In this document: positions 22,177-59,694 of the stretch, piece after piece
Numbering within the stretch: the stretch's first letter is position 1
How the letters are laid out: every line of letters starts with the position of its first letter
NCBI GenBank assembly: GCA_902622845.1
Contig: CACNRI010000003.1
Span: 133,859-197,858, forward strand
Reading direction: 5' to 3'
Length of the DNA stretch: 64,000 nucleotides
Source of the DNA: an uncultured SAR86 cluster bacterium
GTDB lineage: Bacteria; Pseudomonadota; Gammaproteobacteria; Magnimaribacterales; D2472
The notes under the pieces: generated by a model
Told to the model about the DNA's origin: nothing
The model's database searches: none
The model's input: the letters and a program-made list of their open reading frames with translations, nothing else
Position numbers and translations under genes: made by a program

Positions 22177-23266
22177 CTAAAGCATCAAGAACATCTTTGA
22201 ATGAGACAATTTTGAAGTTTTGTCTTTTAGTTCTATACCCATCTTTATTAAGACCATCTTGGGCAATCATAATGCCTTCTGGATACTCTTCACTCAGATT
22301 GTAGTTGATTGTTTCTATACCATCTGTATCAGTCACATTGTCTATACTTTTTGAAGAGCCTATTCTAAAACTTGTAATGTAATCATAAGGATAGTTTCTA
22401 TCATACAGATTAAACTTACTATCTCCCTGAGAGGATAAAATTAAATAACCTGAATTGTTTGGTGTTTTATATAATGATACGCCCTCTGGGTCACCACCGA
22501 TTTGACCTTCCCTAGAATCAACAATATAAGGCTTAGAAAAATCAAAACTATCATCGAGTCTATAAGCTTTTAAAACCCCTCTTACCTCTTCTTCCGATAT
22601 AAAAAGGGTCCTATTTAAATCATCATAAACACATCCCTCGGATTCTCCGCCATTATTAAACGTTGTTATAAGATCAAGGCCATTCTCAGTTAGGTTCCAT
22701 ACTTCAACCCGTGGACCAGTATCTTCTGTCAGAAAAGCAACTAATCCATACTTTGGATCTATTCCGGCGCATATACCATATACGATAATGTCTGATTTAC
22801 CTCTAAATGATGGTCTTGATGGAACTTGCCATGAGTCAGTTTCAAGTTTTTGTCTTGTTTCATTATCTTCAAATACCCATAAATCGATCGATCCTAAAGT
22901 TCTATTAGATGCAAAAAGGAAAGTAAAGTCAGATACATTCTCATCATCTCCAACATTGATAGTTCTTGTATCAATGTTATTAATGTTACCAAGATTTGTA
23001 TAGCTCAGCTCCTGCCCTTGAAGGTTGTAACTATAAATTCCACTTTTTTTGTCAGTACCAAAGATGATTGAGTTTGAGGGATTACTTTTATTTACCCATA
23101 TTGCAGGATCATCAGCTGCATCACCCTTAGTTACAACAGGGGGTGTTTCGTAAATAGCCTCAACCTCAACAATTTCTGAATTAATTGAAACAGATAAGAA
23201 AAAGGCAAGTATAAAACTTGCCTTTTTATAATAAAAATAATTTTTAATACTTGTAAGTGAAACCAA
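22163..23266 (-). CDS. beta-propeller phytase (3-phytase)
   Basis: GDAADDPAIW, GTDKKSG, ESEGCVYDD, DPEGVSLY, SSQGD, TDTDG, QDG..QNFK motifs. Start placed at in-frame TTG 23266 (or GTG 23275), giving a signal peptide; ORF-track start 23344 lies deep inside the receptor gene. Confidence 0.9.
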   Translation of the reverse strand: MVSLTSIKNYFYYKKASFILAFFLSVSINSEIVEVEAIYETPPVVTKGDAADDPAIWVNKSNPSNSIIFGTDKKSGIYSYNLQGQELSYTNLGNINNIDTRTINVGDDENVSDFTFLFASNRTLGSIDLWVFEDNETRQKLETDSWQVPSRPSFRGKSDIIVYGICAGIDPKYGLVAFLTEDTGPRVEVWNLTENGLDLITTFNNGGESEGCVYDDLNRTLFISEEEVRGVLKAYRLDDSFDFSKPYIVDSREGQIGGDPEGVSLYKTPNNSGYLILSSQGDSKFNLYDRNYPYDYITSFRIGSSKSIDNVTDTDGIETINYNLSEEYPEGIMIAQDGLNKDGYRTKRQNFKIVSFKDVLDALDVIR

Positions 23267-25757: not shown

Positions 25758-25784
25758 CAGATGTCCTCAAATTTAAAAACTCAT

Positions 25785-25818
25785 ATACTAATTTTTTAAT
25801 GTTACAAATATGTGACGA
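25785..25818 (-). promoter_or_regulatory. Pho box plus -10 element upstream of the receptor-phytase operon
   Basis: Minus strand tcGTCAC-atat-ttGTAAC (25818-25801; 11-bp period), exactly 10 nt, then TAGTAT (25790-25785). Confidence 0.7.
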
Positions 25819-25887
25819 GAATCCGACTTTATGTAGAAGATTTTTTTTGTAATAATTATACTTTATTAAACATTTGTCTAATTTTTT

Positions 25888-26472
25888 ATGATTGCAAAGC
25901 AAAAAAGAAGTAAAGATAGAGTTGACAAAATCATATCAACTGCAAAATCAATATTGGAACATGGCGAAGTTGCCGATATAACAATTGCTAGAATTTCCCA
26001 AATGTCTAATCTTAAAAGAACTTCTACATATAAATTTTTTCCTACTCCAGATCATATAAAGTCATATTTGCAAAACGAATTAATAAAAGAAAGTTCATTA
26101 TTTATAGATTCAAATACCCAGAAGCCTGAATCAAATGAGCTTCAAAATATCTTAAATGAGTTGGTTACTTCATTAATTAATTATTTTAATGAATCCACAC
26201 CAGCAAAAAAACTCATACTTGATAGTTCAGTTTTTGGAGGTGAAATTGACTCTCTTTCTGTCTTATCAGAATCAATAAATAAATTTGTTTCTTTAAATAT
26301 TGAACTACCCTCAATGTTTAATGAAAAAGGTGTTTTCTTAGTGCTTACACAAATTATTATTTCAGTTTTATCACTTAACTATAAAATGGATCGTGAATTG
26401 AATGATATTGGGAAGAACGAAGCAGTCAGGGCATCGCTATCTTACTTAATTGCATGCACTGCGAAGCAATAA
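25888..26472 (+). CDS. TetR family transcriptional regulator
   Basis: N-terminal HTH (IISTAKSIL...ITIARIS...RTSTYKFFP). Confidence 0.8.
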   Translation: MIAKQKRSKDRVDKIISTAKSILEHGEVADITIARISQMSNLKRTSTYKFFPTPDHIKSYLQNELIKESSLFIDSNTQKPESNELQNILNELVTSLINYFNESTPAKKLILDSSVFGGEIDSLSVLSESINKFVSLNIELPSMFNEKGVFLVLTQIIISVLSLNYKMDRELNDIGKNEAVRASLSYLIACTAKQ

Positions 26473-26473
26473 T

Positions 26474-27739
26474 CTATACGAACAAAATAAATCTAAGAAA
26501 TACGTAAAAAGCAATTGTAAAAATTGCACCTGTGGGAATTGTTACCACCCAAGAGATAACTATCTTTAAAACCTGATTGAAATCAACTTTTGATACTGAT
26601 TTAGCAATTCCGACTCCAATAACAGCTCCTACAAGAGTGTGGGTTGTAGATATCGGGAATCCAATGAAACTGGCTAATATTACAGTTACTGAGGTTGCCA
26701 TTTCTGCAGAAAAGCCCATTGAGGGTGTCAACGTGGTAATTTTTTCACCTACAGTTTGCATTACTCTATAGCCGAGTGTGGCTAATCCAATAACAATTCC
26801 TATAGCTCCTAAAAATAAAATCCATGGAGGTGTCATAGAGGTTGTCAAAATTTGATTTTCTGAATTAACTGTCGAAACAATAGCTGCTACCGGTCCAATA
26901 GCATTTGCAACATCATTTGATCCATGAGCAAAAGCAACGCTGCAAGCAGTAATCACCATCAAAAATGCGAAAGCAGCTTCAACCCCACCAAAATCATTAT
27001 TTTTATCTAAAAGTAATTCTTTTTTTAGGTTAAGAATGATACTTGAAATTATTAAAATAGAAGATGAAAGAATTGCAGAGAAGATGAATACTTCCTGATC
27101 GGTCCATTGAAAACCCACATACTTTAGTCCCTTTTTAGCTGTTACTAAACAAATTACAAAAGTTACAAGTGCTGCATAAAATGGAATTATTCTTACAGCT
27201 GCGGTAACCTGATCAGCTTTTTCAAGAATGAGTTTTTTTGCTGAGAAATATATTAATATTGCAAGGGTTGCTGACACTAATGGAGAAGTTACCCAGCTAG
27301 CGGCAATATTACCGACAACCCCCCATGAGACTGAATTTAAGCCTTTAGTAATTAAAGCAAACCCGACAATTGCACCCACTATAGAGTGAGTTGTTGAAAC
27401 TGGCCAGCCTCTATAAGAAGCAATTAACAACCATGAACCTGCCGCAAGAAGACTTGAAAGCATTCCAATAATAAATATCTCTGGGTTATCATTGTAAAGT
27501 TGAGGATCTACAATGCCTTTGCGTATTGTAGATGTTACTTCGCCACCGGCAAGAAATGCTCCTAAAAATTCAAAAATTGAAGCAAGAATTACTGCACTAG
27601 TTATTGTTAATGCTCTGCTACCAACAGAGGTACCCATTGCGTTTGCAACATCATTGGCACCAATACCCCATGCCATGAAAAGTCCAGCAATGCAGGCCAG
27701 AGCTATGTATAAAAAGGATGCATCTGTTAAGAAATCCAT
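26474..27739 (-). CDS. inorganic phosphate transporter, PiT family
   Basis: Duplicated GANDVANA / HGSNDVANA signatures, PVSTTH and PISTTH. Confidence 0.95.
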   Translation of the reverse strand: MDFLTDASFLYIALACIAGLFMAWGIGANDVANAMGTSVGSRALTITSAVILASIFEFLGAFLAGGEVTSTIRKGIVDPQLYNDNPEIFIIGMLSSLLAAGSWLLIASYRGWPVSTTHSIVGAIVGFALITKGLNSVSWGVVGNIAASWVTSPLVSATLAILIYFSAKKLILEKADQVTAAVRIIPFYAALVTFVICLVTAKKGLKYVGFQWTDQEVFIFSAILSSSILIISSIILNLKKELLLDKNNDFGGVEAAFAFLMVITACSVAFAHGSNDVANAIGPVAAIVSTVNSENQILTTSMTPPWILFLGAIGIVIGLATLGYRVMQTVGEKITTLTPSMGFSAEMATSVTVILASFIGFPISTTHTLVGAVIGVGIAKSVSKVDFNQVLKIVISWVVTIPTGAIFTIAFYVFLRFILFV

Positions 27740-27831
27740 ATTGAAGAACTATACACCAGATAAATAATTATTTTTGTTAAAATTTAGAAACTTTTGTGAA
27801 TTTGCTTTACTTAAAAGTATAATCCAGACAC

Positions 27832-28677
27832 ATGTCTTTAATTACTTTCGATCTTAATGCTTATAAAAAACTTAATCCTAAAGCTTATGCTTTAGAGAAA
27901 AGAAGGCTTCAAATTGAACTTCTTAAACTGCAAGAAGATGTAATTAAAAATGAAAGAAGAATTTGTATTGTTTTTGAAGGAAGAGACACAGCAGGGAAAA
28001 GCTCAGCAATTAAATTCTTCTCTGAATACCTCATGCCGAAAAATTTTAAGTATGTAGCTTTAGGTATTCCTACAAAGTGGGAATCAAGAAATTGGTTTAA
28101 AAGATGGAGCAAGGTTTTACCAAAAAAAGGTGAGATAGCTTTTCTTGATAGATCTTGGTATACAAGAGCGTTGACAGAGCCAGTAATGGGTTATTGTTCA
28201 GAAAATCAATACCTAGAATTTATGAAAGAAGTAAATCATTGGGAAAAAAAACAAATTGTAAAAGGAATGGAAATTATAAAATTCTATTTTTCTCTCTCTC
28301 AAGACCAACAAAAAAGAAGAATGAATGCAAGAAAGAAATCTGAATTGAAGTATTGGAAGCTTTCTAAAAATGATGAAAGAATTGCAACTAAATGGGATAT
28401 TTTCTCACTTTACAAAGAGGAAATGTTTGAAAAGACTTCAACAAATATATCTCCTTGGGTATCCATAAATGCAAATAATAAAATGATAGCGAGATTAACA
28501 GCTCTAAGATTTTTATTAAATAAAACAGTTTATAAAGAAAAAAAACTCCTTAAACCTGCAAGGTGGTCTAAAAAAATACAAAATTATCAAGCTTCTCTTG
28601 AAGGTGTATTATTTGAGAATCTTACATATGAGCAATATATGCTTATCACTAAATATACTGACGATACGACTCAATGA
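27832..28677 (+). CDS. ppk2: polyphosphate kinase 2
   Basis: FEGRDTAGKS Walker A, FLDRSWY Walker B, lid region RMNARKKSELKYWKLS. Confidence 0.93.
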   Translation: MSLITFDLNAYKKLNPKAYALEKRRLQIELLKLQEDVIKNERRICIVFEGRDTAGKSSAIKFFSEYLMPKNFKYVALGIPTKWESRNWFKRWSKVLPKKGEIAFLDRSWYTRALTEPVMGYCSENQYLEFMKEVNHWEKKQIVKGMEIIKFYFSLSQDQQKRRMNARKKSELKYWKLSKNDERIATKWDIFSLYKEEMFEKTSTNISPWVSINANNKMIARLTALRFLLNKTVYKEKKLLKPARWSKKIQNYQASLEGVLFENLTYEQYMLITKYTDDTTQ

Positions 28678-29534
28678 AAATAGCTGCAATTGATATTGGA
28701 ACAAATGCAATTAAGTCTAAAATCTTTGATACAACTCCTACATCAATAGATTTCAAAGAAGGTGTGCGAACACCAATAAGACTAGGTACAGAAGTTTTTT
28801 TGGAGGGTAAAATTCCAAAAAAAAAGCTTATTGATCTATCAATCCTAATTGACAAATACATAAAATTTTTCAAGCAAAACGAAGTCAAACTCTATGAAAT
28901 AGTTGCCACTTCTGCATTCAGAGATACTAATAATTCAGAGGAGTCGAGAAGATTCATTGAGCAAAAAATAGGCCAACCTGTAAGAATTATTTCAGGATTT
29001 GAGGAAGCAAACTTGATAAAATTCCATCCAGATGCAAGCTTATTATCTGATAAGTTTTTCGTTGATATTGGTGGAGGAAGTACTGAATTCTTTCAATACA
29101 GTAAAAATAATTTACATCTAACTCAGTCATTCCAACTTGGAGCAGTCAGAAATATGCTTAAAAAAGATAAATTATCAGAATGGGACAGAATGAGTGATTG
29201 GCTAAAAGACAATCAACTAAATTCTAAATTAATTGGGATTGGAGGAAATATAAGATCTTTTTTTAGATTATGCGATGCAAAGTCTATGGATGCTGATATG
29301 TTTTTAAATGAAGTTAAGTTGCTAAACTCTATTAAAAAAGATAAAAAAATTGATTTGTTTAATTTATCTGAGGATCGCGCAGATGTAATTGATGAAGCTT
29401 TGAAAATATATTCAAAAATCATAAAAAAAGTTCGTCCAAAAAAGATTAAAGCAACTAAATGGGGAGTGGCTGATTCAATTTCGGTTAAGCTGTTTCATGA
29501 GCTTTATGCCGGGAATATAAAAATTAGAAATTAA
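28674..29534 (+). CDS. ppx: Ppx/GppA family exopolyphosphatase (catalytic domains only)
   Basis: AAIDIGTN, ATSAFRD, ISGFEEA, DIGGGSTE; no C-terminal HD domain. Confidence 0.88.
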   Translation: MKIAAIDIGTNAIKSKIFDTTPTSIDFKEGVRTPIRLGTEVFLEGKIPKKKLIDLSILIDKYIKFFKQNEVKLYEIVATSAFRDTNNSEESRRFIEQKIGQPVRIISGFEEANLIKFHPDASLLSDKFFVDIGGGSTEFFQYSKNNLHLTQSFQLGAVRNMLKKDKLSEWDRMSDWLKDNQLNSKLIGIGGNIRSFFRLCDAKSMDADMFLNEVKLLNSIKKDKKIDLFNLSEDRADVIDEALKIYSKIIKKVRPKKIKATKWGVADSISVKLFHELYAGNIKIRN

Positions 29535-38829: not shown

Positions 38830-41445
38830 CTAAAAGGAGATTTTAAATCCTAGCGAGGCTGATGTTCCAAGATCATATTGATCATATATTGCAATATTTC
38901 TCATTGATGCATAGTACTCCTCATCTAGTAAATTTCTTAGCTCAAGAGATAGTTTTAACTCAAATTCAGGGTATGAATAAATTTTTGAGAATGCAAAATC
39001 AACTAATAGTGGAGGTTCTTCAATAATATCCGGTAAAACATCAATACCTCTAGCTCTTACCCTATCACTAACATAGTTAACAATTAGGGTTGCTTGAGTT
39101 TGGTTTTGTAAATTATCTAAACCGATTTGAAAGTTTGCAATTGTATCTGATTGACCCTGCAATCTGGTATCTCTGCCATTCGCAAGAAGACTTTGAGCAT
39201 CTACAACAGTACCAATACTGTTTATATAGGTATCTCCAGGATTTACAATTACTTCAGATTCAGTTTCCGTATAATTAAACTTAACAAGTAAGTCGTTAGG
39301 TGAATCCATAATTGCTTCGAATACTTGCTCATATTCGATTTCAAATCCATTGATTTCAGCCAGAGGAACGTTTTGGTAAGAGGTAATAATTAAATCACCT
39401 GACTCATTTACAGTTTCTTCGATAGGATTAAGAATTTCCTTTGAGAAAATACCAGCTGTAAAAAACTGATTAAAGCCAAAATAGTATTCAAGTCTTAAAT
39501 CAATATTGTCAATCTCACTATTTTCTAAATATAGTGAGCCAGCTATTACTCTGTCAGTATCAACATCTATAAACAGCGTTGGAGATAGTTCCCTGAAGGT
39601 TGGCCTAGCAATTGTCTGAGAAGCGCCCAATCTAATTTGAAGGTTTTCATCAAATTCAGGGAGATATGTTAATGTCATTGAAGGTAGCTGATAATCTTCT
39701 TCTATTGATTTATCAATTAAGGAATCAACACCTGAAAATAAATCATATGTATTAACTTGCTGCAGACCTTCTTCTTGTCTAACTCCAGCAGTAAATTCAA
39801 AATTATCTCCAATTGATGATTCAACACTAATGTATGCTGAATCAATTTCCAATAATCCTAAGTACCCAGCTGGCGATGAACTTGCAGTATTCTCGATTAC
39901 CAGCAACCTGTTAGGATCAAAGTTTTGGTCAGCAAAGATATAATCTATTCTATTATCTAAGCCATCTTGAGGTAATGGACCACCAGCAGCCAGAAATCTA
40001 AAGCTTCTAACTTCGGCTGATCTATCATTTTCAACGCTTTCAACTCCAGTTCTTAAAAATGTTGACTCACCAAGGGGTATCTCTAGATCTAAAACAACAT
40101 TTGTATTTTGATCTTGGACCATACTAAATTGGGTTTGGTTCCTACCTGTATTAACATCATATAAGTAGACTCCGTCTTCATCTCCATCTTCATAGAAAGC
40201 AACTCTTTCATATGGAGAATCTCTTTCAGCCCTTCCATCACCCAAACTTACATCTAAAGTCCAGTTATTTTCAAAAGTCTTATTATAATTAAACTGATGA
40301 TTTATTAGCTCTCTTTCATAAAATTCTAGATAATCTTCACGGACATCAGCTGAATCACTTGAATCATATCCTTGGAGGATACGTGCTTCTTTTGTTCCTT
40401 TATGAATGTATAGCCCAGTATATTTTATTTCAGATGAATCAGTTTCAACACCAACAACACCCATTGCATATGCTGTAACATCATTTGATGTACTTTTAAA
40501 AGTTTTGTCATTTTGAACAACAACATCTACAGTACCATCACCTTGGTTTTGTAAATCACCAGTTTGCCTGATTCCTTCTTGTGTATCCCATGAACTTTTT
40601 AAACCTGCAGTAAACATGAAGCCCATTGTTGCACTTGGGTCATCAATAATTTTATCAATTCCTAAACCATCAAGACTATCTCCATAAGTCAAACTATAAG
40701 ATTGATCTAGAGGAACATCTCCTGATTGTAAAACCCATAGTTTTGAATTTTCAAAATCTCGACCAAAATTAGCTAATTGCGTTGAATTAAAGTTGGACCT
40801 ATCAAGTTTAAGATTGTTATTAATAGCTCTCTTAATAGTATCTGGTATAGCTCTAGTCCCATCATCATAACCAAAACTATCATCGCTACCACCGTCATAC
40901 ATTAGTCCATCATCTTTTAACGACGTAGCAGAGTTATAACCTGCTGAAGCTGAAAATTCAAGGATCCTATCTAATGGAACAGCTTTTGTATTTATCTCAA
41001 TTATACCTCCTCCAAACTCACCAGGCATGTCAGCTGAATAGGTTTTTTGCACTACAGATGACTCAATGATACTTGTAGGAAAAAGATCAAGAGGTACGAC
41101 TCTCCTGAGTGGTTCTGGACTAGGTAGATTAAGACCATTAAGTGAAGCAGATGAATATCTGTCACCTAAACCTCTTACATATACATATTTACCTCGCACT
41201 AGACTAAGACCCGTAAGTCTTGTAAGGGCGATAGCAATATTGTCATCACCAGTTCTTTCGATTTCTGATGAATCTAATATTGCTGAAATCTCGGATGTAT
41301 CTCTTTTCTCATCTGGTATAAAAGATCCACTTACTACCACTTCTTCAATTTCTTGAGCATTGATAAACAATGGAGAAACTATTATGAATGGTAAAGCAAA
41401 CTTTAAAAAAACCCAGATTTTGTTTGTTGTTTTTGTTGATTTCAT
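38830..41445 (-). CDS. TonB-dependent receptor
   Basis: EEVVVSG TonB box, VYVRGLGDRYS...LPSPEPLRRVVPLDLFP plug, C-terminal Phe; start ATG 41445 after GGAG. Confidence 0.93.
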   Translation of the reverse strand: MKSTKTTNKIWVFLKFALPFIIVSPLFINAQEIEEVVVSGSFIPDEKRDTSEISAILDSSEIERTGDDNIAIALTRLTGLSLVRGKYVYVRGLGDRYSSASLNGLNLPSPEPLRRVVPLDLFPTSIIESSVVQKTYSADMPGEFGGGIIEINTKAVPLDRILEFSASAGYNSATSLKDDGLMYDGGSDDSFGYDDGTRAIPDTIKRAINNNLKLDRSNFNSTQLANFGRDFENSKLWVLQSGDVPLDQSYSLTYGDSLDGLGIDKIIDDPSATMGFMFTAGLKSSWDTQEGIRQTGDLQNQGDGTVDVVVQNDKTFKSTSNDVTAYAMGVVGVETDSSEIKYTGLYIHKGTKEARILQGYDSSDSADVREDYLEFYERELINHQFNYNKTFENNWTLDVSLGDGRAERDSPYERVAFYEDGDEDGVYLYDVNTGRNQTQFSMVQDQNTNVVLDLEIPLGESTFLRTGVESVENDRSAEVRSFRFLAAGGPLPQDGLDNRIDYIFADQNFDPNRLLVIENTASSSPAGYLGLLEIDSAYISVESSIGDNFEFTAGVRQEEGLQQVNTYDLFSGVDSLIDKSIEEDYQLPSMTLTYLPEFDENLQIRLGASQTIARPTFRELSPTLFIDVDTDRVIAGSLYLENSEIDNIDLRLEYYFGFNQFFTAGIFSKEILNPIEETVNESGDLIITSYQNVPLAEINGFEIEYEQVFEAIMDSPNDLLVKFNYTETESEVIVNPGDTYINSIGTVVDAQSLLANGRDTRLQGQSDTIANFQIGLDNLQNQTQATLIVNYVSDRVRARGIDVLPDIIEEPPLLVDFAFSKIYSYPEFELKLSLELRNLLDEEYYASMRNIAIYDQYDLGTSASLGFKISF

Positions 41446-41475
41446 TTTTACTCCCAAATAGGTTTTATAAAGTTA

Positions 41476-44406
41476 TTAGTTAAGTTTTATTGATCCAGGT
41501 ACTGTCCATCCTTTGTACCAATTATCAGTCGCTCCACTAACTGCACCTATGTATGTAGTTTCTTCAAAAAATCCATCGGCATTGTATATTGCAGGAACAG
41601 CTGTAACCGCAGCACCACTTTCTGCAGAACCGTTCACAACTCCACTAAGTGTATTTACATAAGTACCACCACCAGATGTAGCTGCATATAAGTTGGTATC
41701 AGGAGATTCCTTAACAATTGCCTCAATTGCTGATACTGCAACACCGTCGTTAGTTTTAATAAATCCTGGGCAATCAAATGCTACAGAGTTCATAGAGAAA
41801 TTAGGTGTTATGGCGCCATCAAGAGGTGTTTCTGTTTTAGTAGTCTCTATACAATTTGTTGATTTGCCTGTAACTTCGTTAAGAACAGCAGCAACTCCAT
41901 TATAATATTGACCTGATACACCCTCTTTTAACTTAAATATATCGTCATGACCTCTACTTACAAAAGTAAAGTTAGCAACAATTGGATTTGATCTAGGCTC
42001 ACTTAAATAACCAACAGCACTATCACTGTTAACATTATCTGATTCGACAATATGATCACCTTTATCATTAGCCTGTTGAACTATAACGTATTGAAGTCTT
42101 CCTTGATAACCCCAGTCAATATCTAAGTTATCATCATCTGCTCCTGTACAGATCAGATGTTTTACATCAACTGTTCCACCAAAGAACTCGACGCAATCAT
42201 CTGCGTTGTTATGAACTTGAATGTATTCAACCGAAGTACCACTCCCAACACCACCAAAAGTGATTCCATTGAGCTCATTACCTGGGAATACCTCATAACC
42301 TGCATACTGAACTCTTAGATATTTGAGTGCTCCACTACTATCAGTTGGTATTTCACCTCCCATTACATCTCCGGCTGATCCTTCAACCTCTCTCTCACAT
42401 GGAGTGGTTCTAACTCCTGTAGAAGCGTATGAACACTTATTAATTGGTGATTGACCAAGAATGACTAAGCCTCCCCAAAGTCCTCGTGTTAAGTTTACGT
42501 CTGCTTGACCAAGAATATCTTGTCTTCCAGTCATCACGATTGGAGCAGATCTTGTTCCTACAGCATTAATATCCGATCCTCTCATAATTACTAAATAATC
42601 ATTACCTGATTCACCAAAAACTGTTACACCAGGATTAATAGTTAATGTAGCTGAGTCGCCGTCTGAAGCAGTACCATCTGCTCCAACATCAACACCAATT
42701 TGAACTTTACCATCAAGCTTATAATAGTTTCCTGCTACTAGAGTTAAATCATCTGTTATAACTCCACTTAAGTCACAAACCTTTCTACCTAAAAGAATTT
42801 CAGATTCAAGAGTTCCAGCGGGACACTCAGGATCGGTAAATAGACCAACAGTCCAACCTGCAGCCCAGTTATTTTCTGCATCTGATCCAGGTGAAAAAGC
42901 ACCAACATAATCAGTTGCTGAAAACCAATTATTAACAACGTAATTCCCATCATCGTATCCAGGACATAGTTCTGTTAAAGCTCCGGCTGCATGAGTTCCA
43001 ACCGCACACATATCGTCAATTTCTGATATCGAAAATGCGCTTGGAACAGCAGATTCAGTATCACCCAAGAAGTATGTATCCACCATTGTATTCGACCCAA
43101 AGTTTAAATTAGTCGATCTTGATGCAAGTGATGCTGCAAATTCTGCATCTGTTGCTGCATCAAACTTTACAGGAAAGTCTGTTTCATTGCCCGAATCAAA
43201 AAATATTGAATGATGAGCAATTTTGTCTGTTAATGCACCATCTTGAATAGTTTCTAAAAATGTACCTTCAACGAGATTCTGTGATGCTTGGTTTACAACA
43301 ATACCATTGATATAAATTCCAGATACACCCTCTTTATACTTAAGTGGTTCGTCAGCTCCTCCTCCAATAAAGGTAAAGTTGGCAACCATGGGTTGTGATC
43401 TGGGCTCTGTTAAGTAACCTACTGCTGCATCAGAATTTGTATTGTCTGATTCTACAATATGATCTCCTGCGCCAACATTTTGTTTAACAACAACAAATTG
43501 CATTTTTCCTTGATAACCCCAATCGATATCAAGATTATCATCACCTGCATTAGTGCAAACTAAATGTTTTACGTTTACAGTTCCACCAAAAAACTCTACG
43601 CAATCATCTTGGTTGTTATGAACTTGAACATAGTCCACCTTTGTTCCATAACCAACACCGCCAAAGGTAATACCATTTAATTCATTGCCTGGGAATATTT
43701 CTTTACCTGCGTATTCAACTCTAACGAAGTTTAAAACTCCAGAGTTATCATCTGGAGAAGCTCCACCCATAATAGCAGTAGTAGAACCTTCAACCACTCT
43801 CTCGCAAGCAGCAGTTCCTCTAACATCATTACTACACTTATTAATTGGCGCTTTACCTAAAATAACTATTCCACCCCAAAGACCACTCGCACTGTCTGGG
43901 TTAGTTAAAGATCCATCAATCGCAGAAGCTGCAGTAAATCTAATAGGTTTGGATCTGGTTCCGTTGGCAACAATTTTTGACCCTCTTTGAACAACAATAT
44001 AATCATCAGGTGTTTTTTGAGCAAGCGTTACGCCAGCTGGAATTGTTAATGTTGCAGCGACTCCTCCAGATTTTGTTCCATCTCCACCCATATCGACACC
44101 AACATCAACTAAGCCGGATAGACGATACATTACATCAGTTGTAAGTGTTAAATCTGAAGTTATTGGACCAACAATTGCGCATAATGTATTACCACCAAGA
44201 GTTGAATCATTAGAAATGAATGGAGAAGAAGGACAAGTTCCCGTCAGTAAATTACTATTACCGCCCCCACCACCGCCATCATCACTTGGGGGTGATAATG
44301 GACCCAGCTCACCAGGAGATGCAATATTAGTATCACCACCTCCACACGAAGCTATAATGAAAATTGAAAAAATTAAAAATAAGTTTTTAGTTGATTTTAG
44401 GCACAT
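41476..44406 (-). CDS. 976-aa outer-membrane lipoprotein made of two tandem ~460-aa predicted beta-helix modules (ElpS-like)
   Basis: Lipobox IASC (Cys21), AGAGG SD, Gly/Pro linker, two homologous modules each with YAG..FPGNELNGITFGGVG...DDCVEFFGGTV...DDNLDIDWGYQG. Confidence 0.85.
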   Translation of the reverse strand: MCLKSTKNLFLIFSIFIIASCGGGDTNIASPGELGPLSPPSDDGGGGGGNSNLLTGTCPSSPFISNDSTLGGNTLCAIVGPITSDLTLTTDVMYRLSGLVDVGVDMGGDGTKSGGVAATLTIPAGVTLAQKTPDDYIVVQRGSKIVANGTRSKPIRFTAASAIDGSLTNPDSASGLWGGIVILGKAPINKCSNDVRGTAACERVVEGSTTAIMGGASPDDNSGVLNFVRVEYAGKEIFPGNELNGITFGGVGYGTKVDYVQVHNNQDDCVEFFGGTVNVKHLVCTNAGDDNLDIDWGYQGKMQFVVVKQNVGAGDHIVESDNTNSDAAVGYLTEPRSQPMVANFTFIGGGADEPLKYKEGVSGIYINGIVVNQASQNLVEGTFLETIQDGALTDKIAHHSIFFDSGNETDFPVKFDAATDAEFAASLASRSTNLNFGSNTMVDTYFLGDTESAVPSAFSISEIDDMCAVGTHAAGALTELCPGYDDGNYVVNNWFSATDYVGAFSPGSDAENNWAAGWTVGLFTDPECPAGTLESEILLGRKVCDLSGVITDDLTLVAGNYYKLDGKVQIGVDVGADGTASDGDSATLTINPGVTVFGESGNDYLVIMRGSDINAVGTRSAPIVMTGRQDILGQADVNLTRGLWGGLVILGQSPINKCSYASTGVRTTPCEREVEGSAGDVMGGEIPTDSSGALKYLRVQYAGYEVFPGNELNGITFGGVGSGTSVEYIQVHNNADDCVEFFGGTVDVKHLICTGADDDNLDIDWGYQGRLQYVIVQQANDKGDHIVESDNVNSDSAVGYLSEPRSNPIVANFTFVSRGHDDIFKLKEGVSGQYYNGVAAVLNEVTGKSTNCIETTKTETPLDGAITPNFSMNSVAFDCPGFIKTNDGVAVSAIEAIVKESPDTNLYAATSGGGTYVNTLSGVVNGSAESGAAVTAVPAIYNADGFFEETTYIGAVSGATDNWYKGWTVPGSIKLN

Positions 44407-44555
44407 AAGAATTCCTCTTAAAAAAATTAATTAATATATTTAATGATTTCTTAGTGAACTTTAGATTAGTTTTATGAAAAATTTAATTTACGTTTTGGAA
44501 ACAAAATCAATACGATTTTATGACAAAAATATATTTTTTGTGACGAGAATGTTAA

Positions 44556-46319
44556 CTATTTGCTATGTAAAGGAAGAGTAAACCAAAAAATACTGCCATT
44601 TTTTTTGTTGCGATTTCTAGCACCATACTTGCCTCCCAAACTAATAGCTAAATTCTTTACAATAGCAAGACCAAGACCACTTCCAGATTTTTGACTTGCT
44701 CTGGCTTCAGGAGTTCTATAAAAACGATTAAATATAAAGTCTCTATCAGCATCGCTTATACCGGTACCTGAATCCTTAACTGAAATTTTAATAGAATCTT
44801 CAATAACTTTAGTGGTTATCTTTACTTCACCCCCGTTATTAGCCTTTGAATACTTAATTGCATTATCAAGAAGATTTGTAAGAATTCTCTCTATTGCTGC
44901 TTTATCCCCTAAAACATGAGGGCAATTACATTTATCAAATCTAATCTCAATGCCTTTATTTTTAGCAGATGTATAATGAGATCTATTGACGGTGTTAATT
45001 ATTTCACAAACATCTAATTCTTTAAGATCTAAATGCAATTCACCGTAGTCTATCCTTGATAAATCTATCAAATCACTTACCAAACCAGAAATCCTCTCTG
45101 CATTATGCATAATTGCTTTTGAAAAAACTTTGGCATCTTTTTTATTGTCTATTGCTCCCTCTAGTAATGTTTCAGCATTAGCAAATATGACACTTACAGG
45201 AGTTCTTAGCTCATGCGAAAGATTAGATATAAAATCTCTACGCATTGATGCATTCTCTCTTAATTGGGTAACATCATGAACAACGAGGATATACTCGTTA
45301 GTAGTTTTTGCTCTATTCATAGAACCAAGTATCCATTTAACATCACCATTTTTAAGTTCTATTTGAAACTCATAATCGAATCTTCCTTCCTTATCAACAT
45401 TTTCAAACATATTCTTAAGTGCTTTTATATTTAAATCTCTTATATTTTTCTTTACTGAGGAGCTAATTTCTAAGATTCTTAGAATGCTATCGTTTTCATA
45501 AGTGATTTTTCCGTCATTATCAGTAACAAAGACTCCTTCACCTAAATTATCTAACACTGATCCAAATTGATCTCTTTGTTTAGCGATCATGCTAATTTGG
45601 GTTCTTAAATTCTTAGATATCTCAGAGATATCTCTTGCAACCGACCCAATTTCATCAGATCTTTGTGTCGGTAGAGCCTTCAAGTTCTTTTTTTTCTGAT
45701 CTTTTAATAGTCCTCTAGTTGCATTCTCAAGCTCTCTTAAGTTATTCCATGTAAAATTGGCAGCAATGGCGCTTGAAAAGAAAGCTGCAATAAGTCCAAC
45801 AATTGCAATCAGAGTTACAGAAAGTGATAGACCATCGAATGCTCCTTGAACATAGGTATAAGGAACTGCAATTCGAATAAAACCAACACCCTCTTGACCT
45901 TTCAAAGCCAAATATAGCAATTCCTTATTAACTGTATCACTGTATCTAATCGACCACCCAACATTATTGAGCTTTGCATCAATAATTTCAGGCCTATTGG
46001 AATGATTTTCTACAACACTGATTTGACTAGTTGAAAGATTTGAATCTCCTAAAACTTCACCACTGTCTTTGATAATTGTAACTCGAGAGTCAATAGATTC
46101 TCCAATTCTGTCTGCAACGATATCAGCTTTTTCTATTGAATCTAATTTTGAGACTGGGCCGATCGAAATACTTGCTAATTCTGCTTGTTTTCTTAATTCA
46201 AGAACAATCTGATTTTCAAGAGTTTTTGATAAATCTCTTTCGGCTACTATATAAGAAAGGAAAATTCCTACAAAAAATATTCCAAAAACGATTAAAAAGA
46301 TTTGGGATCGAATACCCAT
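44556..46319 (-). CDS. PhoR-like sensor histidine kinase (periplasmic sensor, HAMP, PAS, HisKA, HATPase)
   Basis: SHELRTP H box, NLLDNAIKY, DSGTGI, GSGLGL; two TMs flanking ENHSNRPEI...RYSDT sensor domain. Confidence 0.85.
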   Translation of the reverse strand: MGIRSQIFLIVFGIFFVGIFLSYIVAERDLSKTLENQIVLELRKQAELASISIGPVSKLDSIEKADIVADRIGESIDSRVTIIKDSGEVLGDSNLSTSQISVVENHSNRPEIIDAKLNNVGWSIRYSDTVNKELLYLALKGQEGVGFIRIAVPYTYVQGAFDGLSLSVTLIAIVGLIAAFFSSAIAANFTWNNLRELENATRGLLKDQKKKNLKALPTQRSDEIGSVARDISEISKNLRTQISMIAKQRDQFGSVLDNLGEGVFVTDNDGKITYENDSILRILEISSSVKKNIRDLNIKALKNMFENVDKEGRFDYEFQIELKNGDVKWILGSMNRAKTTNEYILVVHDVTQLRENASMRRDFISNLSHELRTPVSVIFANAETLLEGAIDNKKDAKVFSKAIMHNAERISGLVSDLIDLSRIDYGELHLDLKELDVCEIINTVNRSHYTSAKNKGIEIRFDKCNCPHVLGDKAAIERILTNLLDNAIKYSKANNGGEVKITTKVIEDSIKISVKDSGTGISDADRDFIFNRFYRTPEARASQKSGSGLGLAIVKNLAISLGGKYGARNRNKKNGSIFWFTLPLHSK

Positions 46320-46322
46320 TAT

Positions 46323-47021
46323 TTAATCGGGGTTTCTTGAAAACCTGTAGCCAACACCCCGTATGGTTTGAACATGTTTACCCATAACGCCCATTTTTTC
46401 ACGAAGTCTTTTAACATGAGTGTCAACAGTTCTGGTGGTGATGTGAGCTGAATAACCCCATACATCTGAAAGGAGCTGATCCCTTGTCTGTACTCTTCCT
46501 CTTCTATCTAGAAGATGTTTAAGTAATTTAAATTCTAATGCGGTTAGAATTATTTCATCATCATTAATAAAAACCTCATGAGAATCCTCATTTATCGAAA
46601 GAATTCCAAATGTTTCGATTTTAGATGATGTGTTTTGAGTCATATCTTTTGAATTTCTTTTTAAGATAGCTTTTATACGAAGCATTAGCTCCCTCACACT
46701 GAAAGGCTTGGTTACATAATCATCAGCACCTAATTCAAATCCAACAACCTTATCTACTTCATCATCTTTTGCAGTGACTATAATTATTGGAATATCGCTA
46801 TAAGCATTTGAAGATTTGAGTTTCTTACAAAAATCTAGTCCAGATCCATCTGGGAGCATAAGATCAAGGATGATCAAAGAAATATTATTAGAAGAAATAT
46901 ATGATTCGGCCTCAGTTAAATTTAGTGCACTTAGGGGTTTTAAACCTTCATTAGCAATATTATATGAAACAGTTTTATTTATATCAGGTTCATCTTCTAC
47001 TACAAGTATGTGGTGGGACAT
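46323..47021 (-). CDS. OmpR/PhoB family response regulator (probable phosphate regulon regulator)
   Basis: VVEDE, LDLMLP, ADDYVTKPF, winged helix TRTVDTHVKRLREK...RGVGY. Confidence 0.9.
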   Translation of the reverse strand: MSHHILVVEDEPDINKTVSYNIANEGLKPLSALNLTEAESYISSNNISLIILDLMLPDGSGLDFCKKLKSSNAYSDIPIIIVTAKDDEVDKVVGFELGADDYVTKPFSVRELMLRIKAILKRNSKDMTQNTSSKIETFGILSINEDSHEVFINDDEIILTALEFKLLKHLLDRRGRVQTRDQLLSDVWGYSAHITTRTVDTHVKRLREKMGVMGKHVQTIRGVGYRFSRNPD

Positions 47022-47052
47022 AGGCTATATTTTCACATTATAAAAAAATAAT

Positions 47053-55443: not shown

Positions 55444-56175
55444 CTAAAAGACTTTATAACCTATGTATGAATTTGAAGAGAAGCACTCAGATTGTTCAGA
55501 AAAAAGATCTTTTATTTCAATTGAATCTTCACTGTCTATCCAGCTAGCATAAAAATTATCTCTATCTGAAGAGGAATTAAAAAAGTTATGCCAGTAGAAG
55601 TTCCTCGAACTAGAATCTGAGTTTAGAAAATCAGCTTTATAAGAAATACTATACTCATTCAATAGGTTATAAAAATAATCTGAAGCAACCTTAAACGTTC
55701 CAAAGTTTGAATCTGGACCAAATTCACAGTCTAGGATTTCTAAGTAGAAAATATCATCTTGCTGATCTAGCTTTGAAATTAATGTAGTTGCAACAAGATT
55801 ATTATTTTTTTGCAGACACTGAAATATATTGTTTTCAGAATTAATGAATAAGCTAAGATTCTCTTGATCAATAGATTCTTTATTTTTTACATTGATTATA
55901 AAATTTTTAATTTCATCATCTTGGCTGTCTGAAAAATAAAAATCTAATTGATATTCAAAACTATGATTCTTGAGCAGTTGAGAAAGTTTAGGAATATATT
56001 GCTCAAGGTCATTTAAATTATTATTTTGACTTAGAGTACATTCATACTGAGAGATAAAGTAGTTTTGGTTTGGTTGCATTAATTCAGAGAGATTTTGTTG
56101 ATTATCTGAGACTTCTTTACTACATGAAGCAAGAAAAAATAGAGAAATTAAAAAATTTTTATACGGCATCATCAA
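55444..56175 (-). CDS. hypothetical lipoprotein, divergent paralog C
   Basis: Lipobox LASC; Cys spacing and C-terminal motif shared with A and B. Confidence 0.7.
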   Translation of the reverse strand: MMMPYKNFLISLFFLASCSKEVSDNQQNLSELMQPNQNYFISQYECTLSQNNNLNDLEQYIPKLSQLLKNHSFEYQLDFYFSDSQDDEIKNFIINVKNKESIDQENLSLFINSENNIFQCLQKNNNLVATTLISKLDQQDDIFYLEILDCEFGPDSNFGTFKVASDYFYNLLNEYSISYKADFLNSDSSSRNFYWHNFFNSSSDRDNFYASWIDSEDSIEIKDLFSEQSECFSSNSYIGYKVF

Positions 56176-56188
56176 CTATAATCAATAC

Positions 56189-57145
56189 ATGAATAATTTT
56201 ATCAAATTATATCTTTTATCTAGCTTAAGTTTATCTTTTATAAATGCAGATACTACTAAATTTGGTCTAGGTTCTTGCCTTGATCAAGATTACCCTCAGC
56301 CAATTTGGAAAGCAATTGAAAAAGAAGACTTGGATTATTTTGTTTTCTTGGGAGATAACGTCTATGGAGATTTACCTAGTGGGTCTCTAAGAAAAATGGT
56401 AAGTGCCTATAAAAAACAAAAGAATAATTTTCCTGAATGGATGAAAAACGTAGAAATTTTACCTATATGGGATGATCATGATTACGGCTTAAATGATGCT
56501 GGCTCAGAATATCCTCTAAAGAGACAATCACAAGAGATATATCTAAATTTTTGGGGAATACCTTTAGATGATGATAGGCATAATAGAGATGGTATTTATT
56601 TTTCAGAAGAAAAAATAATACAAGGTAAAGTTTTTAAACTAATATTTCTAGATACAAGATTTTTTAGATCTAAGTTGAAAGGCCCAAAAGGAAAATATAT
56701 TGAAAACCTAGATCCTGACGCAACAATACTTGGAAATTCTCAATGGAATTGGTTGGAGAGTGAGCTAAAAGATCAATTTGATTTCTTAATGATATTTAGC
56801 TCCATTCAAATAATTGCAGAAGATCACCCCTATGAAAAATGGAATAATTTTCCACATGAAAAAGAAAAACTATTTAATATGCTAAACAAATATAATGACA
56901 AAACTTTATTTGTTTCGGGAGATAGACATAGGGGCGGTATCTATAAAGAAAGTGGAATCTATGAAATAACTGCATCTTCACTCAATAAGCCTGGTTCAAA
57001 TTTTGATGAGACTGATACTAATCTTATTGGTAAAACATATAATCAAGAAAATTATGGATCGCTTGAAGTTTCTGAAAATAAAATAAACGTTTTGTTAAAA
57101 GATCTTAATGGCAAAACCCTAAATATGGTTAGCCTCAAATATTAG
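56189..57145 (+). CDS. PhoD-like alkaline phosphatase/phosphodiesterase
   Basis: GSC, LGDNVYGD, WDDHDYG, LDTRFFR, LGNSQWNWL, SGDRH; Sec-type N-terminus. Confidence 0.9.
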   Translation: MNNFIKLYLLSSLSLSFINADTTKFGLGSCLDQDYPQPIWKAIEKEDLDYFVFLGDNVYGDLPSGSLRKMVSAYKKQKNNFPEWMKNVEILPIWDDHDYGLNDAGSEYPLKRQSQEIYLNFWGIPLDDDRHNRDGIYFSEEKIIQGKVFKLIFLDTRFFRSKLKGPKGKYIENLDPDATILGNSQWNWLESELKDQFDFLMIFSSIQIIAEDHPYEKWNNFPHEKEKLFNMLNKYNDKTLFVSGDRHRGGIYKESGIYEITASSLNKPGSNFDETDTNLIGKTYNQENYGSLEVSENKINVLLKDLNGKTLNMVSLKY

Positions 57146-57163
57146 AGACTAACCATAAAAGCT

Positions 57164-57577
57164 CTACTTAAGAACAATAACTTTACCTTTGAATGTTTTA
57201 TCACAATAACCTCTATAGAGATTAGCTAGATGTGATTTTCTATTTTCAGATAAATAATTAACCTTTAGGTCGCAGGTTAATGAAGGATCTATAAGTCCAT
57301 TATTTGAAAACTGCAAATAGTCGGAATACATTCCAAAGAGAACAACATTGTGGTGGTCTTTAGAGATATCATCCCTAATATAAATTGAAGCTTTTTTATC
57401 ATTTATAAAACATCCCACCGACCCTTTTGGACAAACTGAGGTTACAAGATCATTATCGTAAATAACCTCAATTGGTTTTGCATCCAGATCAAGCATGTTT
57501 TTAGCCTCCTCTAGAACAGTATCTGCACTAATAAATAGAGCAAACGATGAAGTGATTAAAAAATAAAATTTTTTCAT
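57164..57577 (-). CDS. secreted hypothetical protein, 137 aa, four Cys
   Basis: GGAGA SD, signal peptide, strong upstream promoter. Confidence 0.75.
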   Translation of the reverse strand: MKKFYFLITSSFALFISADTVLEEAKNMLDLDAKPIEVIYDNDLVTSVCPKGSVGCFINDKKASIYIRDDISKDHHNVVLFGMYSDYLQFSNNGLIDPSLTCDLKVNYLSENRKSHLANLYRGYCDKTFKGKVIVLK

Positions 57578-57586
57578 GTTTCTCTC

Positions 57587-57637
57587 CTGTCATATTAATG
57601 TAACATAAATGTAACATATAAGACACATTTTAGACAC
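57587..57637 (+). repeat. five tandem 11-bp-phased Pho-box-like half-sites
   Basis: CTGTCAT-atta-ATGTAAC-ataa-ATGTAAC-atat-AAGACAC-attt-TAGACAC starting at 57587, 57598, 57609, 57620, 57631. Confidence 0.75.
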
Positions 57638-57654
57638 AGAAAAAAATCTGTCAA
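57627..57654 (-). promoter_or_regulatory. near-consensus sigma70 promoter for the 137-aa gene
   Basis: TTGACA (57654-57649), 16 nt, TAAAAT (57632-57627). Confidence 0.7.
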
Positions 57655-57664
57655 GTTTTATCTC

Positions 57665-58552
57665 TTAAATATCTTCAAGTAAGAATGGAGCTGCGGCTTG
57701 AATCATTTTTGAGTTCTCATGGGCTGCATTTTTGACAACTTGCAACCGCCATCTAAATGGCATATCTAAAGAATCTGCAATGAGAACATTTCTTTCAAAA
57801 TAACGAATACCCCTTTGAAATCTATTATTGCCCTGCTCTTTTGCTCCTTTGTCATTTCTTAATGAGCCATCATTAGGGTCTGTATCCTCATCACCAAGCA
57901 TTATTGCTCCTTTGACAGATAAGAACCATTTAAGTCTATCTTCAGATATAGGCATATCTTGTACACCATAAGGATAATTAATATCTTTTAAAAAGGTATA
58001 CCATCCAGCATTGGCCATAACTGCTTTTTCAGCCCTAGTATCCTGACCAAATAAAAGATATCTATGCACAAACTGTGATCCTCCTGAATGACCATAAATT
58101 CTATATGAGTTCTCCTGAATATCGAATTTAGACCTAAAATAATCAAATATTAAACTGATTGAATCACTGAGAGAGTTGCTGGGATTATTTTGAGGTTCTA
58201 AACAATATCCTGAATATTCATATTCACAACCTTTTCCTTGAGCAAGTTTTTTATCGACGACAAGAGAGTTATAAGATGGAAAAGCTGCTTTATCAAACTT
58301 TGGCGCAATCAGAATAATATTTTTATTATTCGTATATTCATACCATTTTGTAAAATATGACTCGGCTGTCCTTGATGCGCCATGAATAACAAAAAGGACT
58401 TTAGTATCCTCATTAACCTTCTCTGGCAGCGAATAAAAGATTTCTAAATCTGGTTTTGACCAAAGTGAGAACGTTAACTTATTGAAGTTGTCTGCCAAAG
58501 AAGAAAAAGAGATAAATAAGCAAACTATAGAAAAATACAATTTTATGCGCAT
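57665..58552 (-). CDS. secreted alpha/beta serine hydrolase, PahZ1 (polyaspartate hydrolase-1)-like
   Basis: LFVIHG, YGHSGGSQFVHRY nucleophile elbow, ANAGWYT, PYG, LGDED, H near C-terminus; start at ATG 58552 (MRIKLYF). Confidence 0.75.
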   Translation of the reverse strand: MRIKLYFSIVCLFISFSSLADNFNKLTFSLWSKPDLEIFYSLPEKVNEDTKVLFVIHGASRTAESYFTKWYEYTNNKNIILIAPKFDKAAFPSYNSLVVDKKLAQGKGCEYEYSGYCLEPQNNPSNSLSDSISLIFDYFRSKFDIQENSYRIYGHSGGSQFVHRYLLFGQDTRAEKAVMANAGWYTFLKDINYPYGVQDMPISEDRLKWFLSVKGAIMLGDEDTDPNDGSLRNDKGAKEQGNNRFQRGIRYFERNVLIADSLDMPFRWRLQVVKNAAHENSKMIQAAAPFLLEDI

Positions 58553-58590
58553 ATATGCATAATAAAGCAAATAATAATTATTTACACACA

Positions 58591-59694
58591 ATGATCTTTG
58601 GTAATTTATCTATCAAAGCGATTCATGAATCGCCCTACAAGTTTGTAATTTCATCCAGTGGCGGAGGAACTAATGCAATTTCTGCGTTAATGGGTGTACC
58701 AGGTGCAAGCCAATCTATTTTAGAGTCTTATGTGCCCTACTCGAGGGAATCTCTAGATATTTATTTAAATAAAAAACCTGATCATTATTGTTCGCAAGCA
58801 ACATCACTTCATATGGCATCATTGGCATATAAGAAAGCGTTAAAGATATCCGATATTGATAAAAAATACCTATTTGGTATCGCTGTAACAGCCTCTTTGA
58901 AAAGTAATTACAATAAGCTTGGTGAGCATAGATTCCACATCGCCTTACAAAACGAGAAACAAACTGTAGTCATCAACTGTGTTCTTGAAAAAAATAAGCG
59001 CTCTCGTGAAGAGGAAGAAAATTTATTATCAACATTTATATTAAATTTAATATCAAAGTCTTGTGCTTTAGAGTTTGAATATCCTCAAATATCTGACGAG
59101 ATAGAAATTAGTGAAGTTCATGGAGAAAAAGATTGGATTGACCTGATTGATGATAAGGTCGGCTTTATCTCCAATACAGCAAACAAACCAGAATTAATAT
59201 TTCCCGGATCATTCAATCCTCTTCATAAAGGTCATCTTAAAATGAAAGAGGTCGCAGAAAGGAAAACTGGAATGGATCTATATTATGAAATCTGTATTGA
59301 TAATGTTGATAAGCCGCCATTAACTTTCTTTGAAATCTCAAACACAATCAATCAGTTTGAAAATGATTCCTGGGTTTTAACAAAGGCTGGCAGGTTTATT
59401 GATAAAGCCAAATTGTTCGAAAATGCTACTTTTGTGATTGGTTATGACACCCTAAGAAGATTATTTAATGAAAAGTATTATGAAAACTCAAAAATCATGA
59501 AGGAAAATCTAATGATCTTTGATGACTTCAATATAAACTTCCTGGTATTTGGGAGAAAGGATTTTGATAAATTTAGATCTCTTGAAGATGTTGATATACC
59601 AGCGGAATTAAAACCAAGATTTACTGGTTTCGATGAAGATACATTCAGAGATGACATATCGTCATCAGAAATAAGGAAAAAAGAATTAGATTAA
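58591..59694 (+). CDS. CinA-like domain fused to an HxGH nucleotidyltransferase domain
   Basis: GGG...GVPGASQSILESYVPYS N-domain; FPGSFNPLHKGH and FVIGYDT...ISSSEIR C-domain; start at ATG 58591. Confidence 0.8.
   Translation: MIFGNLSIKAIHESPYKFVISSSGGGTNAISALMGVPGASQSILESYVPYSRESLDIYLNKKPDHYCSQATSLHMASLAYKKALKISDIDKKYLFGIAVTASLKSNYNKLGEHRFHIALQNEKQTVVINCVLEKNKRSREEEENLLSTFILNLISKSCALEFEYPQISDEIEISEVHGEKDWIDLIDDKVGFISNTANKPELIFPGSFNPLHKGHLKMKEVAERKTGMDLYYEICIDNVDKPPLTFFEISNTINQFENDSWVLTKAGRFIDKAKLFENATFVIGYDTLRRLFNEKYYENSKIMKENLMIFDDFNINFLVFGRKDFDKFRSLEDVDIPAELKPRFTGFDEDTFRDDISSSEIRKKELD

Follow-up and report, generated by a model that had tools for sequence, protein, structure and literature searches.

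Bacteria of the SAR86 cluster are abundant in the surface ocean and count among the most abundant uncultured bacteria of the sea, and since they lack a genetic system, their regulatory logic must be read from sequence and from environmental RNA. The stretch of SAR86 DNA analyzed here (64,000 nucleotides, hereafter the window) raises a question of this kind between positions 57587 and 57654, where five short units spaced like the binding sites of a response regulator are laid over the promoter of a gene coding for a secreted orphan protein of 137 amino acids (aa). What reads these units, and does it turn the gene on or off? An initial annotation of the sequence suggested a cooperative repression switch silencing an exported protein under phosphorus starvation. 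This inference was largely borne out, apart from the orientation given to the array and from the identities of the regulator and of the signal. Taken together, the evidence makes repression of the 137-aa promoter by a PhoB-like regulator under phosphorus limitation moderately probable.

Anatomy of the array and of the underlying promoter

The array occupies most of a short intergenic region between two genes of the minus strand, and its elements are given below in the direction of transcription.

57578-57664: intergenic region of 87 nt between two minus-strand genes coding for a 308-aa (57665-58591) and a 137-aa (57164-57577) protein
57649-57654, minus strand: -35 hexamer TTGACA, conserved in the promoters of homologues
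57632-57638, minus strand: unit 1, TGTGTCT, with two mismatches to TGTNACA; corresponds to plus-strand TAGACAC moved by one base
57627-57632, minus strand: -10 hexamer TAAAAT, after a spacer of 16 nt, exactly between units 1 and 2
57621-57627, minus strand: unit 2, TGTGTCT, with the predicted transcription start (about 57620) at its downstream edge
57610-57616, minus strand: unit 3, TGTTACA, an exact TGTNACA
57599-57605, minus strand: unit 4, TGTTACA, an exact TGTNACA
57588-57594, minus strand: unit 5, TATGACA, which reads on the opposite strand as the E. coli-like half-site (C)TGTCAT(A)
57582-57587, minus strand: Shine-Dalgarno sequence (SD) GGAGAG, whose GGAG (57587-57584) abuts unit 5 and whose aGGAg is conserved in the alignment of homologues
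57577-57575, minus strand: start codon ATG of the 137-aa gene
57164-57577, minus strand: gene of the 137-aa secreted orphan protein (signal peptide, four conserved cysteines, HH motif)

On the plus strand, the heptamers CTGTCAT (57587), ATGTAAC (57598), ATGTAAC (57609), AAGACAC (57620) and TAGACAC (57631) follow one another at steps of exactly 11 bp; in the direction of the 137-aa gene, the units read TGTGTCT, TGTGTCT, TGTTACA, TGTTACA and TATGACA (57588-57638). Units 1 and 2 are direct repeats, and units 3 and 4 compose an 18-bp pair TGTNACA-N4-TGTNACA without mismatch, for which the chance expectation in the window is 0.2 matches. Tandem Repeats Finder reports period-11 arrays at 57591-57638, and the self-identity at lag 11 (32/44 at 57585) is the maximum of the whole 64 kb (mean 12.1, standard deviation 3.1, next best 24), a score attained in none of 100 first-order Markov simulations (simulated maximum 29). 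The five exactly phased units described at the outset are thus not random.

The underlying promoter, TTGACA-16-TAAAAT, agrees with the promoter consensus at 11 of 12 positions, and its start at about 57620 is predicted from the position of the -10 hexamer. Matches of this quality occur twice in the window and about four times per 64 kb in simulations at its composition (33% GC), so that the match was rejected as stand-alone evidence, and the weight of the promoter comes instead from conservation and RNA evidence. From the -10 hexamer onward, the array covers the predicted start site and the entire leader down to the SD, just as originally described. It was also correctly observed that no suitably placed -10 element exists on the other strand: there is no TAnnnT 10 nt after any unit on the plus strand, nor is there a plus-strand gene to drive at this place. 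Judged by its sequence, a near-consensus promoter overlaid from -10 to SD by repeated sites is a repression layout.

Conservation of the array and neighborhoods of the 137-aa gene

The 137-aa protein is 99% identical in the SAR86 single-cell genome AG-894-D08, and its family comprises 27 representative clusters among 1.8 billion proteins; the exact protein of the window had no record in the contig look-up. Sequence searches returned no match in Pfam, NCBIfam or the PDB, and the AlphaFold2 model, with a mean pLDDT of 42.8, is too poor for a fold search. Homologues were recovered at 53 loci, with protein identities of 40-52% outside the clade of the window. In all 47 upstream regions that could be read, a -35 and a -10 element are followed by three to five (A)TGTNACA(T) units reaching to the SD. 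The -35 element, TTGAC(A/T/G), is located 71-81 nt before the ATG in nearly all of these promoters, and a TAnnnT follows 16-18 nt after it in most promoter types. An unbiased MAFFT alignment of 14 diverse promoters, whose flanking DNA cannot be aligned, retains as its sole conserved islands TTGAC, the SD, the ATG and, between the first two, a pair of TGT.ACA-N4-TGT.ACA blocks.

Summarized as a logo, 78 distinct pairs give wATGTNACATwwATGTNACATw with A/T-rich spacers, and the family-wide unit (A)TGTNACA(T) is a 9-bp palindrome with a free central base, alike on both strands. Strand orientation is therefore undefined, and the "reverse orientation" initially ascribed to the array has no meaning. 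The phasing anticipated in relatives is kept in part: the layout recurs in every readable region, but most clades include one shorter step (11, 11, 9, 11 bp), which places two strong pairs 31 bp apart around a degenerate middle unit, whereas every step is of 11 bp in the clade of the window. At locus L008 (40% protein identity), the units are entirely downstream of TTGATT-16-TATAAT. The arrangement is also specific. Throughout 356 kb of DNA (the window and the homologue loci), at least two exact TGTNACA within 35 nt occur solely upstream of the 137-aa gene, and a scan with a 20-bp position weight matrix adds only position 25799 of the window (20 bits) and one weak site of 14.6 bits. None of the CRP, TyrR, LexA, Zur, Fur and NtcA-type motifs, compared by eye with the unit spacing, fits TGT-N-ACA every 11 bp.

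A functionless origin, by chance or by neutral tandem duplication of AT-rich DNA, could be seen in units 3 and 4, which make a perfect 22-bp tandem duplication. Against this stand the lag-11 score never reached in simulations, the persistence of the array down to 40% protein identity between flanks that do not align, and a polymorphism confined to degenerate positions: the six operator sites at which near-identical strains vary are all at the central N or in spacers, leaving TGT and ACA untouched. We therefore regard such an origin as extremely improbable. The polymorphism is itself dense, five near-identical strains (the window and loci L001, L002, L009 and L010) having five operator haplotypes over 57591-57613; the six variable sites lie within 23 nt, which ties for the densest spot in 4.4 kb, and could reflect relaxed constraint or exchange between repeats.

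The repeats could alternatively act in RNA, as UGUNACA elements of the approximately 43-nt 5′ leader that bind a protein or fold, and thereby control the stability or translation of this very abundant mRNA. Units 2 to 5 are predicted to be transcribed, all units of L008 are downstream of the -10 element, and the array always ends at the SD. Nevertheless, the predicted folding of the leader (-6.5 kcal/mol, z = -1.38) is not significantly better than that of shuffled sequences, conservation is strand-symmetric, as DNA recognition would predict and RNA recognition would not, and the 11-bp step matches the helical repeat of DNA. Moreover, unit 1 (units 1 and 2 in most clades) is upstream of the predicted start site, and the motif is also found at the -35 positions of other promoters, all of which leaves an RNA-level role improbable and favors recognition of the array as DNA.

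In several loci (L007, L036-L037, L040-L045 and L049), the operator is open in frame upstream of the 137-aa homologue and translates as MLHKCNNCNK..., an annotation pitfall: gene callers would start at a false ATG upstream and lengthen the protein to 154 aa.

The position of the 137-aa gene differs between loci and is always among phosphorus-metabolism genes. In the window type, the gene is next to that of a PhoD-like phosphatase; in about 10 loci, it immediately precedes the genes of an orthologous response regulator (63% identity to the product of 46323-47021) and its kinase; in others, it sits between an AcrR-like gene and PiT (L038, L046) or beside PPK2 and Ppx. The AcrR-like gene immediately upstream of it in L034, L038 and L046 codes for a protein 41% identical to that of 25888-26472 in the window. 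Co-transcription of the 137-aa gene with the regulator and kinase genes in L036-type clades was rejected, as a strong intrinsic terminator follows the gene. In these clades, the 137-aa gene and a spacer of about 240 nt occupy the place of a gap of only 31 nt in the window (47022-47052), between the stop codon of an acyl-CoA-synthetase-like gene and the start codon of the regulator gene, an arrangement indicating that the 137-aa gene was moved or lost from this position in the lineage of the window.

Further observations concern the downstream side of the gene. After the 137-aa gene, L036 and L052 carry a strong intrinsic terminator (AAAAGGCGCTCTATGCGCCTTTTTTT), whereas none was found in the window. 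Transcripts of the 137-aa gene seem to continue into the PhoD-like gene, entering this convergent gene at its 3′ end (56716-57160); in run X2, the depth declines there from 490 through 215 and 98 to 20. The divergent genes of the PhoD-like protein and of a 243-aa lipoprotein are only about 19 nt apart (56170-56188), and their promoters must consequently lie inside each other's coding sequence; the motif was found at neither gene (0/19 and 0/29 loci, respectively).

Sister sites, candidate regulators and two-state expression

The window contains two further occurrences of the motif, as well as a two-component system and a phosphorus gene cluster.

25800-25817, strand undefined: single pair TGTTACA-AATA-TGTGACG, in the intergenic region between the TonB-receptor/phytase genes and the AcrR-like gene
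44539-44554, strand undefined: pair TGTGACG-AGAA-TGTTA, just past the stop codon of the histidine kinase gene and upstream of an operon coding for a 976-aa and an 875-aa protein
46323-47021, minus strand: candidate regulator, a response regulator of the OmpR/PhoB family (profile and structure matches)
44556-46319, minus strand: cognate histidine kinase, PnpS/PhoR-like, with sCache-like, PAS, HisKA and HATPase domains
22163-23344: beta-propeller phytase
23244-25757: TonB-dependent receptor
25888-26472: AcrR/TetR-like regulator

The best NCBIfam match of the candidate regulator is PhoB (TIGR02154, 234 bits, below the cutoff of 296), and its best solved structure is the phosphate-responsive RegX3 (1.4e-49). 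The ArcA model scores far below PhoB (141 bits for a cutoff of 334), and an assignment to ArcA was rejected on this score. The periplasmic sCache-like domain of the PhoR-like kinase sets it apart from E. coli PhoR, and the kinase might accordingly sense a periplasmic ligand directly. The phosphorus cluster (22163-29534), which is conserved across SAR86 clades, includes the phytase, the TonB-dependent receptor, the divergent AcrR/TetR-like gene, PiT (PHO4), PPK2 and Ppx. Inspection of the upstream regions of PiT, PPK2 and the regulator and PhoD-like genes revealed no motif, and neither pstS nor phoU was found in 403 kb of DNA.

In every clade, the intergenic region between the receptor and AcrR-like genes contains one pair with an 11-bp step, of which only the TGTNA core is conserved; the pair of L046 (TGTGAAA-ATTA-TGTGAAC) is a plain direct repeat and not a palindrome. 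Toward the receptor gene, the pair at 25800 is followed after 9 nt by TAGTAT without a -35 hexamer, and a TAnnnT is present 9-10 nt after the pair in three clades. As far as sequence can tell, this is the layout of class II activation, that is, of a promoter needing an activator. The operon next to the site at 44539 (38830-44406) codes for a 976-aa protein without Pfam match and an 875-aa protein with a TonB Plug domain, and this site shares with that at 25800 the 12-mer ATTCTCGTCACA on the minus strand.

Expression was estimated from the depth of assembled contigs in 12 marine metatranscriptomes, normalized to the adjacent 308-aa gene, and falls into two states.

State A (runs X2-X7): 137-aa gene at 53-1240x, receptor gene at 0.4-1.1x
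State B (runs X1, X8, X9, X10, X13 and X14): 137-aa gene at 1.3-7.8x, receptor gene at 1.6-6.7x

The 137-aa gene and the receptor gene are anti-correlated (Spearman rho -0.72, p = 0.008, n = 12), contig depth being a crude measure of expression and the runs not being independent, as four of the six state B runs come from one study. The operon of the 976-aa and 875-aa proteins switches together with the receptor/phytase operon (its depth rises from 0-6 in the runs of state A to 18-92 in those of state B), and the pattern as a whole spans two to three orders of magnitude. The 137-aa gene is among the most highly expressed genes of the 64-kb region. In six runs, its high-depth contigs break off at 57595-57605, and the gene upstream of it has a depth of 3-13; these two facts together place its promoter inside the intergenic region. 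The contig ends probably reflect tip-clipping at the polymorphic operator, and are not evidence for the start site. Two early claims are hence sustained by RNA, namely strong expression of the exported protein from a promoter of its own and a logic opposite to that of the box at 25801. As for the signal, the depths of the regulator and kinase genes did not differ between states A and B, nor did that of the PhoD-like gene, tested as an independent phosphorus marker, so that state B is not independently tied to phosphorus limitation.

The array could conceivably activate the 137-aa gene, its high expression being the regulator-bound state. Certain regulators of the OmpR/PhoB family do use sites downstream of the transcription start for full activation, such as PhoP of Bacillus subtilis at phoA and pstS, and many ocean samples show very high expression of the 137-aa gene. 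Yet its -35 and -10 elements are already near consensus, unlike those of activator-dependent promoters, the sites cover the -10 element, start point and leader, and expression is anti-correlated with that of promoters whose site replaces the -35 element. Activation from the array is accordingly very improbable.

A more serious alternative keeps the operator and changes the repressor: the AcrR/TetR-like protein (25888-26472) or another, dimeric helix-turn-helix protein would bind two 18-bp quasi-palindromes TGTNACA-N4-TGTNACA, the receptor promoters being controlled separately. The central pairs are indeed quasi-palindromic, and the arrangement of most clades (pairs 31 bp apart, degenerate middle unit, 9-bp step) suits two dimers. 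The AcrR-like gene is always within the same phosphorus gene cluster, adjoins the 137-aa gene in the three loci mentioned above, and has a motif pair upstream of it in the window. By contrast, the motif at the receptor site is a direct repeat in some clades, as are units 1 and 2 of the window, and a more suitable operator is at hand. In all clades, a palindrome other than the TGTNACA units, (G/A)ACAWWTGTC, precedes the start codon of the AcrR-like gene by 10-20 nt (25869-25878 in the window, 3160-3172 in L046, and just before locus position 4001 in L054, L057 and L058); it is a likelier AcrR-like operator than the units, and may be a self-operator. Furthermore, a single repressor cannot move targets sharing its motif in opposite directions, as the 137-aa gene and the two receptor operons do. 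We thus find a repressor of this kind rather unlikely, and retain the PhoB-like regulator as the preferred candidate.

The opposite responses of promoters sharing a motif exclude a pure repressor acting alone and leave room for a position-dependent activator/repressor. With the same motif at the -35 position of oppositely moving promoters, they point to one regulator whose effect is set by the position of its site, which fits the OmpR/PhoB type.

Proposed mechanism and comparison with known systems

In the mechanism that we propose, the array would be a multi-site operator over a constitutively strong sigma-70 promoter. A winged-helix regulator of the OmpR/PhoB family, most likely the PhoB-like protein of 46323-47021 in its phosphorylated form, would bind head-to-tail along one face of the DNA with one monomer per 11-bp unit, and from the -10 region to the SD it would keep RNA polymerase out or prevent its escape, turning the 137-aa gene off. 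On single pairs that stand in place of a missing -35 element, the same regulator would activate the promoters of the TonB-receptor/phytase (25800) and 976-aa/875-aa (44539) operons, and the signal would most likely be phosphorus limitation. We infer that a protein binds the array, as well as its identity, the direction of its effect and the identity of the signal; binding by the regulator of 46323-47021 is deduced from gene context. As a counterpoint, head-to-tail binding does not require a 9-bp palindromic unit, which is unlike E. coli CTGTCAT.

A conserved and specific cis-element is gained from this analysis, along with a candidate three-member regulon (receptor/phytase, 976-aa/875-aa and 137-aa) in which position would decide between activation and repression. 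If the signal is phosphorus, an orphan secreted protein gains a physiological context, and the ratio of 137-aa to receptor/phytase transcripts could mark the phosphorus status of SAR86 in metatranscriptomes. A bolder and more doubtful proposal makes the 137-aa protein the chief product of a "phosphorus-replete state" of SAR86, a periplasmic factor that would assist or oppose the Cache-domain PhoR-like kinase, or would act together with periplasmic phosphatases. Its promoter would be one side of a toggle between two states, controlled by a PhoB-type regulator reading the unusual palindromic unit ATGTNACAT in either orientation. Were this true, the transcript ratio would be a direct in situ read-out of SAR86 phosphorus status.

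Four known systems bear comparison with the array. The E. coli Pho box has the consensus CTGTCATA(A/T)A(T/A)CTGTCA(C/T), and the pstS promoter has two boxes, hence four units. Like the SAR86 array, it combines 7-bp units and AT-rich 4-bp spacers into an 11-bp period, and the TGT..A core is common to both. A PhoB/RegX3-like regulator is encoded in the window, the neighborhood is phosphate-related, and the SAR86 sites at 25800 and 44539 are placed as activating boxes. The resemblance to an E. coli half-site, on which the first reading had relied, stands for one of the five units (unit 5, 7/7), but the family consensus shares only TGT..A with it. A Pho box replaces the -35 element and ends about 10 bp before the -10 element, a trait present at 25800 and absent from the array, which instead covers the -10 element, start site and leader of a promoter with a consensus -35. 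Its unit consensus is the palindrome ATGTNACAT, its five units reach the SD, and the predicted effect is repression.

CpxP with CpxAR and ZraP with ZraSR are small periplasmic proteins encoded beside their own two-component system and activated by it. The likeness is one of context only: in some SAR86 clades, the gene of the small exported protein adjoins those of a kinase/regulator pair and has a promoter with an array of sites similar to those bound by that regulator family. Unlike in these systems, the SAR86 layout and RNA data point to repression, and no similarity of sequence or fold is established.

A precedent for Pho-dependent repression is orfA-pit of Sinorhizobium meliloti, which is repressed on phosphate starvation and whose PHO box lies shortly before the start of translation (Bardin et al., as cited in PMC3131613). 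As described there, a Pho-type box near the translation start is likewise associated with repression, and some SAR86 clades place the 137-aa gene beside that of a PiT transporter. The same account gives one box for orfA-pit, as against five units in SAR86, where the target is an orphan secreted protein and not a transporter.

A close mechanistic parallel is provided by ArcA of E. coli, which represses by promoter occlusion from two to five direct repeats with 11 bp from center to center (PMC3798270). ArcA belongs to the OmpR/PhoB family, has footprints of 30-60 bp, and binds sites that, like the SAR86 array, overlap sigma-70 elements (PMC3798270; icdA, PMC4173790). On the one hand, the regulator of the window is no orthologue of ArcA, clades vary freely in the central base of the unit, and the context is phosphate rather than redox. 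On the other hand, the array suits the definition of an ArcA-type occluding operator drawn from PMC3798270 (three to five direct repeats, spaced by 11 or 22 bp from center to center, over the core promoter), and units 3 and 4 read TGTTA-N6-TGTTA, in the manner of ArcA operators. Promoter occlusion by a multi-repeat response-regulator operator is a mechanism already familiar to specialists.
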